A stretch of 63,934 nt of DNA, counting the filler, from Folioceros fuciformis (Eukaryota), in assembly GCA_049999805.1 (NCBI GenBank). It is 15 parts of 15 records of this genome, joined end to end, with 100 filler letters (N's around TTAATTAATTAA, not from the genome) between each part and the next. Parts side by side here need not be neighbours in the genome. Positions count along the whole stretch, not along the records: positions 18,228 to 22,828 come from JBNGIO010005550.1; 14 more parts are not named here. One strand, given 5' to 3'. The notes beneath the pieces are model-generated. The model did no database searches. It was not told where the DNA came from and saw nothing but the letters and a program-made list of their open reading frames with translations. Of the stretch, positions 18,128-22,928 are shown piece after piece; the stretch's first letter is position 1, and each line of letters opens with the position of its first letter. Position numbers and translations under genes: made by a program.

Positions 18128-18288
18128 NNNNNNNNNNNNNNNNNNNNNNNNNNNNNNNNNNNNNNNNNNNNTTAATTAATTAANNNNNNNNNNNNNNNNN
18201 NNNNNNNNNNNNNNNNNNNNNNNNNNNCCGGGGATCTGCCTAGACGAGACTTTTGTGAGAGTCATCTTCCGACAGCGGTCCCTGAAAG

Positions 18289-20875
18289 ATGGCCACAGTA
18301 TGGCAACCGGACCTGTTGTGGACCCAACAAGTTGGAATTGGTGTGTGTTCAAGGACTCTCCCAGGAACCCCCAGTCACCCCAGCTTCGGGAGTGAACCCT
18401 TTGCAAACAAAGCCTGCAGGCGCAGCAGTGTCAGGAACCCAGCACGTCGATCTCCGAGAGGCAGAGCGTGTTTGGGCAGGGACGGGTTTTCCGACGATGC
18501 TGGTAGTTGCCAGGAGCAGCAGGAGCACTTGTGGCAACAACTTTTTCTGGACCCTACCATGTGGTGGGATATCAGACGAGACAAGAAGAGCTCCCGTTCC
18601 CCTGACTTCCGGCGTAAGGGGTCCGGCGAGGTGCTGTGGTGAAACAGCAATCACAAGCCAGCTTGGGTTGATGAGCAGCTCGTTTGCTTCGATCTTTGGA
18701 TGCGTTATGGTGTCTGTCCTGAAGGTGGCAGGGGTCCAGGATCGGAAATGGGCGTGGTTACGGCTGCAACTCTGAGGGCTTATTGCCAGCAGGGGAAGCT
18801 TTCTGAGGCCGTTGGAGCCCTGGAAACTCTTGAGCAGACAGGCTTCGCCATCTCTCAGTCTCTCTTCTGCACTGTGCTAAAACTCTGTACGGCTAACAAG
18901 TATGTCGCTGTGGGTCGACGGATTCATAACCTTACTGTCAAACTCGGGTGTCAGTCGGATGCGTACTTGGGGAACCATATCTTGCGCATGTATGCAGGTG
19001 GAGGTAGGCTGTAGGAGGCCATGGATGTGTTTACCAGGGTGGGCAAACCAGATGTTATCACGTGGAGTTCCATCATCTTTGCGTATGCGAAACAAGGGAC
19101 ACCTCATAAGGCCATACAACTATACCATGAGATGCGTAGGTCAGGAGTGAAGGCCAATGGTAACGTCTTTGTAGCTGCCCTACAAGCTTGTGCTCTTCCC
19201 TCCGACTTGGAATCCGGCAGAAAAAGTGCACTGTGATGTGTTGCGCAGTGGCATTCCTCCGGACTTGTTTGTTGACAACTCCCCTGGTGGACATGTATGC
19301 AAAATGTGGCCAACTGACAGGTGCTCGCCAGGTTTTTGACAGCGTTGCCACAAAGGATGTGATGACGTGGAATGCGCTGGTATCTGGGTATGCTCTGCAA
19401 GGACTTGGCCAGGGGGCGCTCCTTCTGTATGCACAAATGGAGCAACAGGGCCTCATTTTGCCTGACCATGTTACTTTTGCTTGCCTACTGAAGGCCTGCG
19501 AGCACTGGTGCCTTACAGAAGAGCAGGCAGCGGCACTCACAGATTGTCAAAAGAGGACTTTTGAATGACGTACTAGTGGGCACCTCCCTAGTGGACACCT
19601 CCCTGGTTGACATGTACGCAAAATGTGGTGAACTGGAAGACGCACGCCAGGTCTTTGACACCATGAACACAAAAGATGTAGTGGCATGGACGGCCCTGAT
19701 ATCTGGGTACGCACAGCTAGGACTCGGCTTCTTCTCTATGGACAAATGGAGCAAGAAGGCCTCATTTTGGCTTACCATTTTACGTTTGGTTGCCTCCTGA
19801 ATGCACGTGGAAGCAGTTGTGTCTTACAGAAGGGCAGGCAGCTACACTCTTAGATTGTGGAAAGAAGACTGCTGAATAACGTCGTGTTGGGCACCTGCCT
19901 GGTCGACACGTATGCAAAATGTGGTGAAATGAAAAATGCACACCGGGCCTTTGATAGCATGAACACCAAGGACGTGGTGACGTGGGATGCCCTTATAGCT
20001 GGCTATGGTAATTGTGATCAAAGGCACAAGGGACTAGCGTGTTGTGATGAGATGTATAAGTGCCGGTGTTCAGCTTGATGGTGCTACTTTTACTTGCACT
20101 TGCATTCTAGTAGCATGTAGTCACGAGGGTCTGGTTGACGAGGTACTCGCATTCAATGGCTGAACAGCATGGGATCACACCTACCCGTGAGCATGACATT
20201 TGTATGATTGATCTTCTTTGCCGTGCGGGCCATGTGGACGAGGCAGAGAAGATGCTATTGTTCCGTGAGGGACAGAGTAGTGTTGTGGGCTTGACGTCTC
20301 TGTTGAGTGCCTGCAAAAGGCACGGCGACGTACAGAGGGCCATGCCGTGTTTTGAAAGGATTGTTGGATTGGAACCTCAGAGTGCATCCCCATATGTTCT
20401 CATGGCAAATGCTCATGCAGATGCAGGCAGGTGGAGCGATGTAGACAGGATTGAAATGCAGAGAACAGAGGCAGGAGCTAACAAGAAACCTGCAGAGGCG
20501 ACCGTTGAGGTGAATCAAGAAGGTACATAGATTTTCGGTGGGAGAAAGGAGAGGATATTGCGATACAGGTGCAGAGCACGAATGCGCGCAGGAAGGAGGC
20601 CATGGTCCTCACTCAAAGTTGGTGTTGAAGTCACTGCGTGGGAAGGAGAAGGAAGATGCGCTTTGTGGGTATGCTGAGAAGCTAGCCCTGGCTTTTGGTC
20701 TCTTGAACACTCCTAGTGGGACACCTCTAGTGGTAACCAAGAANNNNNNNNNNAGCGGCCGCCACAGCTCCATGGAGATTATGTCAAGGCTTGAACAAAA
20801 GGATATTGTGGTAAGCGATGGGTACCGTGTGCATGGATTCGCAGGTGGTTCTTGCAGTTGTAGAGGTGGACCGTG
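18289..20875 (+). pseudogene. PLS-class PPR-E-DYW:KP (GRP-type) pseudogene with an N-terminal OSB-like PDF motif
   Basis: The same frame runs from ATG 18289 through LWQQLFLDPTMWWDIRRDKKSSRSPDFRRKGSGEVLW*...PAWVDEQL into PPR repeats ([24 protein letters not shown]). The C-terminus reads KKPAEATVEV...CGYAEKLALAFGLLNTP...CSCRGGP. Several stops and frameshifts; 10-N gap at 20744-20753. Confidence 0.9.
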
Positions 20876-20959
20876 GAGTACCCCGAGCTCAAGTGTGTAC
20901 TTCTACGCCAAGGAATATTGCAATTGCACTTTAGGTTGAATGTGCCTGCTCATCTCTCC

Positions 20960-21530
20960 GTCCCTGTCCCTGCGCACTCGGGAGTCCCAGCGTCCCGGGG
21001 TGTCCCGGCGCACTCGGGAGCCCCAGCCGTCCCGAGTGTGTCCCGGAGCCCTCGGGAGTCGCAGCGTCCCGGTTTGTCCCGGCGCACTCGGGAGTCCCGC
21101 TGTCCTTAGTGTGTCCCGGCGCACTCAGGAGTCCCGCTGTCCCGAGTGTGGCCCGGCGCACTCGGGAGTCCCGGCGTCCCGAGTGTGTCCCGGCACACTC
21201 GCGAGTCCCGCTGTCCCTAATGTGTCCCGGCACACCCGGGAGTCCCGCTGCTCCGATTGTGTCCCGGCGTCCCGAGTGTGTCCCGGCGCACTCGGGGGTC
21301 TCAGCGTCCCGCAGTGTCTTGCGCACTTTGGAGTCTCTGCGTCCTGGTGTGCCGGTGCTCTACGGAGTCCCGCCGTACTCATATGTCCCGGCGCACCCGG
21401 GAGTCCCAGTGTCCTAGTGTGTCCTGGTGCAATCGGGAGTCTCGACGTCCCGGTCTGTCCTGGCACACTTGGGAGTGTCAGCCTCCCGGTGTGTCCTGGC
21501 GCACTTGGGAGTCTTAGCGTTCCGGTGCAT
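20960..21530. repeat. GC-rich ~37-bp tandem minisatellite (~15 degenerate copies), each unit with an internal 9-bp inverted repeat
   Basis: Consensus tgtcccggcg-cactcggga-gtcccgctg-tcccgagtg; units start at 21075, 21112 and 21149 (period 37). Confidence 0.9.
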
Positions 21531-21534
21531 CTGG

Positions 21535-22828
21535 GTATGCGAAATGCGGTGAAATGAAAGATGCACACCAGGTTTTTGACAGAATGAACACAAAGAATGT
21601 GGTGATATGGAATGCCCTCATATCTGGATATGCCGAGCAAGGGCTAGGACATCATGCTCTTGCTCTGTATGGGCAGATGGAGAAGGATGGGCTGATTTCG
21701 GGTAACCATGTTACAATCGCTAGCCTTCTGAAGGCGTGTGCAGCGGCGGGTGCCTTACAGAGGGGCAGGCAGTTGCACTCGCTGGTCGTTGAAAGAGGGC
21801 TGATGGAGGGAGCAGTGCTGGGCACGTGCCTGGTGGACATGTATGCAAAATGTGGTGAACTGGATGATGCACGACATGTTTTTGACAGCTTGGCCACAGG
21901 ATGTGGTGACATGGAATGCCCTAATTTCTGGGTATGCTGACCAAGGGCTCGGACATGAGGCGTTTGCTGTCTATGCACTAACGGAGCAGGAGGGCATCAG
22001 TTCGGCTGATCATGTCACGTTTACTTGCCTGCTGAAGAGCTGTACAAGCAGTGGGGACTTGCACAAGGGCGGGGCCCTGCACTCACTGATTGTTGAAAGG
22101 GGACTGTCGGATAATGTAGTGGTGGGCAACTGTCTGGTGGGCATGTGTGCAAGATGTGGTGAAGTGAGAGATGCACGCAAGGTTTTTGACAGCTTGACCA
22201 CAAAGGATGTGGTGACATGTAATGCCTTAATTGCAGGGTATGCACGGCAAGGTCTTGGCCCAGAGGCACTTGGTGTGTATGAACACATGGAACAAGAGGG
22301 CCTCACTTTCGCTGATGATGTGACTTTTTCGTGGCTTCTGAAGGCCTGTGGAAGCACCGGTGCGTTACAGAAGGGCAGGCAGCTGCACTCACTGATTGTC
22401 GAAAGAGGCCTGCTGGATAACGTAGTGCTGGGCAACTGCCTGGTGGACATGTATACAAAATGCGGTGAAGTGGAACATGCACGCCGTGTTTTTGACAGAA
22501 TGGCCGCAAAGGATGTGGTGACATGGACGGCGCTGATTGCTGGGTATGCACAGCAAGGTCTAGGAATTGAGGGGTTTGTTTTGTATGGACAAATGGGGCA
22601 GGAGGGCCCCGTCATAGCCAATCATGTTACTTTTGCTTGCCTTCTCAATGCCTGTGCGAGCACTGGCGCCTTAGAGCTGGGCAGGCAGCTGCACTCGGAG
22701 ATGATGAAAGTGGTGTACTGGAAAATGTGGTGTTGGGCAACTGCCTGGTGGACATGTATGCAAAATGCGGCGAATTGGAAGACGCACAGCAGGTGTTTGA
22801 CAGCTTGGCCATGAAGGATGTGGTGACA
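21535..22828 (+). pseudogene. Second PLS-class PPR array, frameshifted (~21900, ~22705), 5' end lost and 3' end truncated by the contig end
   Basis: Repeated DVVTW(N/T)ALI(S/A)GYAxQG / HVTFxCLLKAC / [15 protein letters not shown] triplets, closely similar to the other PPR loci. Confidence 0.9.
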
Positions 22829-22928
22829 NNNNNNNNNNNNNNNNNNNNNNNNNNNNNNNNNNNNNNNNNNNNTTAATTAATTAANNNNNNNNNNNNNNNN
22901 NNNNNNNNNNNNNNNNNNNNNNNNNNNN

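Follow-up and report, generated by a model that had tools for sequence, protein, structure and literature searches.

An OSB-type PDF motif in front of the PPR array of a decayed DYW:KP gene, and its intact relatives in ferns and Sphagnum

PPR editing factors are usually described as a PPR tract followed by E and DYW domains. Among the subtypes defined by the deaminase, the hornwort GRP subtype of DYW:KP proteins is recognized by KP in place of PG, by HAE in place of HSE and by a C-terminal GRP triplet (PMC9478123), and its members count as candidate U-to-C editors (Gerke 2020; Gutmann 2020, as given in PMC9478123). U-to-C activity has been demonstrated for the designer proteins KP2, KP3 and KP6, while GRP-based synthetic editors were reported to edit only about 22-26% of the target in E. 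coli (PMC9478123). The PDF motif is known from the OSB proteins; it is about 50 amino acids (aa) long, is named after Pro-Asp-Phe, occurs in one to three copies behind the OB fold and is sufficient for binding of single-stranded DNA (ssDNA) in AtOSB1 (PMC6963530). OSB1 and OSB2 prefer ssDNA over double-stranded DNA or RNA, and the review concerned places the motif in green plants only (PMC4166229). The RRM-PPR fusions tabulated in PMC13386178 pair a PPR tract with a nucleic-acid-binding module of another type, there an RRM and not a PDF motif. Here we describe a PPR gene, now a pseudogene, that carries a PDF motif ahead of its PPR array, in a 63,934-nucleotide stretch of joined contigs from Folioceros fuciformis (assembly GCA_049999805.1), the whole of which is referred to below as the window. 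The features are collected in Table 1.

The peptide read in the frame of ATG 18289, LWQQLFLDPTMWWDIRRDKKSSRSPDFRRKGSGEVLW*NSNHKPAWVDEQL, had been described in a first-pass annotation as an OSB-type PDF motif. Both peptide and frame stood as written there, but the start at 18526 was one codon early (this codon is His80), so that the peptide LWQQ...DEQL corresponds to 18529-18681. On its sequence this segment encodes a genuine PDF motif. A phmmer search of 1,835,955,588 representative proteins with a 74-aa stretch as query, in which the TGA was read as X, matched 529 proteins at E<=1e-3. Of these, 115 lay at <=1e-10 and 16 at <=1e-30. Between 2 and 13 stretches matched in most of the proteins, as expected for a repeat motif, and chance similarity was rejected as the source of the match on these E-values. 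Inspection covered the best 150 of the 529 representative matches, and these included proteins named ‘protein OSB1, mitochondrial’ (P0042 from Populus, E 1.1e-19, and P0159 from Vigna) as well as Ceratopteris proteins named ‘single-stranded DNA-binding protein’. The profile match that had been set beforehand as the check on this peptide was therefore significant, with OSB1 proteins among the matches. A Pfam SSB domain lay upstream of the PDF repeats in six of nine typical matches of 336-427 aa, in four of them above the curated cut-off; the scan set also took in a tenth protein, the fragment P0077, which is outside these nine. All 14 invariant columns of a 13-sequence alignment (W8 P15 W18 W19 D20 R22 K25 P31 D32 F33 L42 W43 P50 W52) are retained in the window's motif, which scored 89.6 bits against a hidden Markov model (HMM) built from the PDF motif instances of this analysis and which has the length (about 50 aa), the Pro-Asp-Phe triad and the flanking Trp and basic residues by which the OSB-type motif is defined. 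It is the only PDF motif in the window. The PDF peptide matched no Pfam family even at E<=10, Pfam having no PDF model, and no PHROGs family was matched by PDF motif material.

Although the OSB proteins and the window's motif share the core of about 50 aa (W...P..WWD.R..K.....PDF...LW...P.W, with HMMER E-values down to 1e-74 for multi-repeat members), the anatomy around it differs, as an OSB protein has an SSB-like OB fold and, behind it, between one and three C-terminal PDF motifs whereas the window gene has a single N-terminal PDF motif followed by a PPR solenoid. Pfam found no SSB domain in 18289-18720, and because no SSB-like OB fold precedes the motif, while an 80-aa extension lies before it and PPRs after it, the window gene is not an OSB. 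The PPR-linked motifs also form a clade separate from those of the OSBs, with a KP.WVD tail of their own. In a FastTree analysis of 435 motif instances the window's motif fell in a clade of 20 leaves (support 0.94) in which 17 of the 19 other leaves are PPR-linked and two are short fragments (P0077 and P0118), P0118 running on into PPR-like sequence. The KP.WVD tail is present in the window's motif and in 15 of 22 PPR-linked motifs as against 4 of 412 others. Furthermore, residues 223-448 of the intact PDF-PPR protein P0004, from its third PDF motif through its first repeats, are collinear with 18511-19224 (35% over 238 aa by tblastn), so that in the window gene an N-terminal PDF motif of the PPR-linked subclade is collinear with a PLS-class array. 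These three observations, the clade, the tail and the collinearity, indicate that the fusion was inherited from an old PDF-PPR lineage and was not newly captured from an OSB gene.

Downstream of the motif, about 25 aa of linker precede the first PPR repeats, which stay in the frame of ATG 18289 as far as 19236. Beyond this point the array can be followed only via at least six frame changes (tblastn frames 1,3,1,3,1,2,3), and the indels relative to a paralogue are +1, +6, -8, +1, -2 and -7 nucleotides. The order of a PLS array and then E1/E2, which characterizes a PLS-class PPR-E-DYW editing factor, was evident from tblastn collinearity and from Pfam matches to PPR and E_motif. The reference for typing the deaminase was the intact 3' part of this paralogue, which lies on a different small contig of the window (the first 16 of its 345 codons in frame are X, arising from a linker run of N) and is 78% identical in nucleotides to the pseudogene over 997 nucleotides, or 80.6% in a global alignment. 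It reads KKKPAVASIEV ... CGHAEKLA ... CSDCH ... CSCKGRP-stop, with KP box, HAE and CSDCH intact. The corresponding features of the pseudogene are KKPAEATVEV, (Y)AE and, at the place of the GRP and stop of the paralogue, GGPW, the triplet being mutated in this copy; these are the marks of DYW:KP, GRP subtype. The 80-aa extension at the other end is presumably an organelle transit peptide plus a spacer.

This copy is, however, decayed along its length. There are in-frame stops at TGA 18640 and TAG 19012, and in the deaminase HAE has become YAE (TAT at 20670-20672) and SDCH has become SGRH, so that with the N10 gap, the stops and the frameshifts no intact HxE and CxxCH zinc-binding motifs remain in an open frame. 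With two in-frame stops in the first kilobase, six or more frame changes, HAE altered by His to Tyr, CxDCH altered by Cys to Arg and its own stop codon gone, the copy is dead, and on these sequence grounds it is beyond doubt a pseudogene without function of its own. The first-pass annotation had claimed both this and an in-frame fusion of the PDF motif ahead of a PLS array, E motif and DYW:KP domain of the GRP type; the lesions just listed establish the former, and the frames, tblastn, Pfam and the typing by the paralogue agree with the latter. The window gene thus resembles the GRP-subtype PPR-DYW:KP proteins in its PLS array, E1/E2, KP box, HAE-type site (here YAE) and GRP-type end (here GGPW), and differs from them in its N-terminal PDF motif, of which no mention was found in PMC9478123; the designer proteins described there begin with the PLS array.

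Table 1. Positions of the PDF-PPR pseudogene, its parts and the paralogue used for typing, counted along the window
Feature	Position	Strand	Basis
Whole PPR pseudogene: N-terminal extension, PDF, PLS array, E1/E2, DYW:KP (GRP)	18289-20876	+	Frames, tblastn, paralogue alignment
N-terminal extension, 80 aa, R/S/P-rich, low-complexity	18289-18528	+	Frame reading
PDF motif (OSB-type), PPR-linked subclade, KP.WVD signature	18529-18681	+	phmmer, FastTree, HMM 89.6 bits, 14 invariant columns
In-frame TGA inside PDF motif; TTA (Leu) in paralogues, consensus LWL position	18640-18642	+	Contig alignment
PLS-class PPR array, about 14 motifs, frameshifted: (P)LS, 3 x P1-L1-S1, P2-L2-S2	18700-20320	+	Frame reading, tblastn
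E motif (E1/E2)	20321-20509	+	Pfam PF20431, E 8.3e-11, residues 70-132 of translated 20114-20529
KP box KKPAEATVEV in place of PG box	20483-20512	+	Frames, paralogue alignment
DYW_deaminase, two halves around N10 gap 20744-20753	20598-20867	+	Pfam PF14432, 3.3e-9 and 3e-7
C-terminal GGPW where the paralogue has GRP + stop; stop codon lost	20865-20876	+	Frames, paralogue alignment
Intact 3' part of paralogue, different small contig: last PPRs, E, DYW:KP ending CSCKGRP*	62924-63913	+	Open frame, 345 codons to stop

The first-pass annotation had asked that functional paralogues be sought; intact PDF-PPR relatives were found, the 12 full-length ones without a DYW domain. PPRs lay behind the PDF motif in 9 of the best 150 of the 529 representative matches, and none of these nine was a named angiosperm PPR, in agreement with the claim that canonical angiosperm PPR editors lack the motif. 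Six more PDF-PPR proteins came from a homologue search in which the three PDF motifs of P0004 served as query. Twelve of the intact PDF-PPRs are full-length: P0004 and P0174 (1371 and 1374 aa, with three PDF motifs each, P0174 being from Pteridium), P0094, P0157 and P0176 from Adiantum, P0140 and P0152 from Ceratopteris, P0179 from Sphagnum compactum, which represents a 90% cluster of 25 members including S. jensenii, S. troendelagicum and S. fallax, and P0158, P0175, P0177 and P0178. Database records of such fusions are KAI5076972.1 (Adiantum), KAH7429238.1 and KAH7415342.1 (Ceratopteris), CAM6051292.1 (Sphagnum) and Pteridium transcripts. Like the window gene, the fern and Sphagnum proteins carry PDF motifs of this subclade at the N-terminus, in their case one to three, which a linker separates from a PLS array, and they are collinear with it over the PDF motif and the first repeats. 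They differ at the other end: Pfam detected a DYW_deaminase of either type in none of the 12, all of which end within or just after a (partial) E motif, whereas the window gene runs on into DYW:KP. Other searches added little. With residues 18-80 of P0094 a homologue search gave three matches among 16 candidates, the word index being insensitive for the PDF motif, and metagenome DNA-pattern scans gave no match with a strict pattern and four loci with a looser one, none of which encoded a PDF motif by HMM.

Further copies in the source organism were seen when contigs of four sequencing runs (X1-X3 from organism A, the source, and X4 from organism B) were aligned at >=85% likeness. At 18641 a G>T change, which converts the TGA to TTA (Leu), was present in 35, 31 and 34 contigs in X1, X2 and X3, respectively, and in 101 in X4, and a loose end translates on as ...L-D-N-R-F-K-P-T-W-V. 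At 20670 T>C (Tyr to His, restoring HAE) was present in 73, 75 and 69 contigs in X1, X2 and X3, and at 20496 each organism A run had 35-43 contigs with A>T (E to V, the residue of the intact paralogue). In two contigs per run 18693 is joined to 18788, that is, the end of the PDF motif to the first PPR. The Leu, His and Val readings in so many contigs indicate that the PDF-bearing family in the source organism is multi-copy and that most copies are unbroken at these sites, the family being known from short contigs without readable 3' ends. It was also observed that 4-8 contigs in each organism A run lack 182 nucleotides of the N-terminal extension (18336-18517), a length not divisible by 3, reflecting either an insertion here or a deletion there.

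The structure of the motif was modelled with AlphaFold2 from the window's 63 residues and 12 relatives, giving a model with a mean predicted local distance difference test score (pLDDT) of 80.9 in which three short strands lie between two helices. In a model of the Pteridium fragment P0079 the PDF motif (residues 20-86) had pLDDT values of 78-91 as means of 10-residue blocks, the linker (85-97) was below 50 and a confident PPR solenoid began at residue 101, so as modelled the PDF motif would be a separate small module on a flexible tether. Against the PDB by sequence, the alignment profile matched only via its PPR flank and the PDF-only protein P0110 gave a best E of 0.26; by fold, the best Foldseek E was 5 and the best hit of a wide VIA-align search had Z 3.8 with a root mean square deviation of 3.5 over 56 aligned residues, no row being outstanding. 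The absence of a convincing solved look-alike shows neither a known nor a new fold.

Taken together, the probable reading is that the window holds a genuine PDF motif of the PPR-linked subclade in what was once one collinear PDF-PLS-E-DYW:KP gene, now dead, and that the fusion is old and is no speciality of U-to-C editing. The ancestral gene would have encoded, after a presumed transit peptide, one PDF motif joined by a short linker to about 14 PLS repeats, with E1/E2 and a GRP-subtype DYW:KP deaminase at the end. The PDF motif is predicted to fold on its own into a helix-strands-helix module, tethered by about 13 flexible linker residues. The N-terminal repeats of PPR proteins read the 5' part of the target, so the PDF motif would lie upstream of the recognized stretch, and there it might add sequence-independent single-strand binding on the 5' side of the RNA read by the array. 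Such extra binding could raise affinity or keep the target unfolded, and its effect would be the same whether the deaminase is part of the protein in cis (DYW:KP here) or, as in the E-type proteins of ferns and mosses, is missing or provided in trans. Several points weigh against this reading. No intact PDF-PLS-DYW protein was recovered, the sole example of the architecture being this pseudogene on a 4.6-kb contig, and it should be noted that DYW-bearing PDF-PPRs may sit among the 379 matches beyond the best 150 of 529. A search with window residues 72-240 gave none among 372 candidates at E<=1e-3 and no relative of 570-1815 aa, so that the paralogues are known only as short contigs. Binding of single-stranded RNA or ssDNA by a PPR-linked PDF motif is putative, and the PDF motifs of OSBs prefer ssDNA over RNA (PMC4166229), which is a poor fit to a role in holding RNA.

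The first-pass annotation had gone further and proposed a functional link of the PDF motif to reverse (U-to-C) editing, by coupling DYW:KP enzymes to nucleoids or by holding their targets unfolded, in which case the motif would be enriched in KP-type proteins. Where a deaminase was seen on a PDF-PPR, in this one case, it is indeed of the KP type, and the named fern sources belong to one of the three U-to-C editing clades named in PMC9478123. Contig counts in organism A are also similar, with 31-35 over the PDF motif at 18641 and 35-43 over the KP box at 20496, which is weak evidence as these contigs are short and filtered by likeness. However, a DYW domain was present in none of the 12 intact PDF-PPRs and one family of fusions is conserved in four Sphagnum species, mosses not being among the clades that PMC9478123 names. 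The fern and moss proteins without a deaminase argue that the module is not tied to reverse-editing chemistry, and with the conservation in Sphagnum they suggest that the PPR-linked PDF clade predates, or is independent of, the KP enzymes. We therefore consider a speciality of U-to-C editors very unlikely, and the functional link as first proposed is not supported. The equal distribution of the motif over C-to-U and U-to-C type PPRs that had been named as evidence against that link is approached, all 12 intact fusions ending at the E motif with that of Sphagnum included, but is not fully reached. A narrower version, confined to the hornwort-like lineage, would make the PDF motif a regular N-terminal part of an expanded GRP-type DYW:KP family and, by its non-specific binding of single strands, a requirement for efficient U-to-C editing in vivo. 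This too is improbable; if it were true, and GRP-type reverse editors needed the motif, it would supply a concrete transferable part for synthetic U-to-C editors.

A different kind of explanation is that the locus is a chimera in which the PDF motif and first repeats of an E-type PDF-PPR were joined to the body and DYW:KP end of another PPR gene, by recombination or gene conversion between paralogues or by misassembly of a small, repeat-rich contig, so that a PDF-DYW:KP protein would never have existed. In its favour, DYW is missing from all intact relatives; the array units from 19283 on share 71-74% DNA identity among themselves and with the adjoining array (21535-22828), which favours unequal recombination and assembly errors; and the contig is just 4.6 kb long, contains an N10 gap and is one of 15 linker-joined fragments, with none of the contigs listed spanning the whole stretch. 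We nevertheless regard a chimera as unlikely, since the motif order is that of a complete, ordinary PLS-E-DYW gene with no terminal motif duplicated or missing, the first frame change is bridged by a 285-nucleotide contig (19016-19302) present in X2 and X3, and the decay affects the gene from end to end, as expected of a single unit that died once. It is also conceivable, if somewhat doubtful, that the anatomy is as proposed and the job another, the PDF motif binding organellar ssDNA, as OSB proteins do, or a protein partner, and thereby placing the PPR protein at nucleoids for co-transcriptional action in place of touching the RNA target. This alternative arises because OSB1 and OSB2 prefer ssDNA to RNA (PMC4166229); the sufficiency of the motif alone for ssDNA binding (PMC6963530) points the same way, and the flexible linker of the model would suit a tether. 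Against it, the PPR-linked PDF motifs are a clade of their own with a changed KP.WVD tail, so that their ligand preference may have shifted. As to the ligand, a tether to nucleoids or ssDNA and contact with the RNA are alternatives of equal standing.

As to the surroundings of the gene, the window is made up of small contigs, 15 in all, with N44-TTAATTAATTAA-N44 linkers between them (for example 18128-18227 and 22829-22928), the pseudogene being on the contig at 18228-22828. The linkers put stop codons in each of the six frames, and segments that adjoin in the window are not neighbours in the genome. On the same contig a GC-rich minisatellite (20965-21527; 36-37-bp unit, about 8.3 + 7.3 copies, 70-83% matches) separates the pseudogene from a second PLS array (21518-22828, + strand), which begins mid-repeat after the minisatellite, with no N-terminus present, and continues past the end of the contig; it includes a 336-aa frame without stops (21804-22814). 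Some of the PDF proteins met in the searches were unusual in other ways. By local count P0001 (719 aa), P0002 (Kingdonia, 1160 aa), P0006, P0007 and P0010 have 8-11 tandem PDF motifs (up to 13 phmmer stretches), a number well above the one to three reported in OSBs. P0048 from Coptis chinensis (1526 aa) has three PDF motifs (190-387) before a kinesin motor domain and is either a merged gene model or a real fusion. P0143 (Logan) and P0119 (ENA, on a 9990-nt contig) are proteins of about 185 aa with a single conserved C-terminal PDF motif behind Q/P/A-rich N-terminal parts that are not plant-like; neither matched a PHROG family, and a scan of IMG/VR with P0119 found no relative. These two may represent PDF motifs outside green plants, contrary to the statement of the review PMC4166229.

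The papers on the PDF motif that we found concern OSBs, one review mentioning PPR and PDF separately, and none was found that links the motif to PPR proteins; as the search was made without Zaegel 2006, Gerke 2020 and Gutmann 2020 this is provisional. The PDF-PPR combination is thus a real and apparently undescribed accessory module of PPR proteins, present in peat mosses, ferns and a genome that is hornwort-like by its GRP subtype, and for the OSB PDF motif the PPR fusion is a second protein context. Because Pfam has no PDF model, domain surveys of the Pfam type would be expected to miss it. A conserved second nucleic-acid-binding module at the N-terminus of PPR proteins extends the parts list of organelle editing and RNA processing, and as a small, self-folding and putatively single-strand-binding unit it is a candidate add-on for designer PPR editors.

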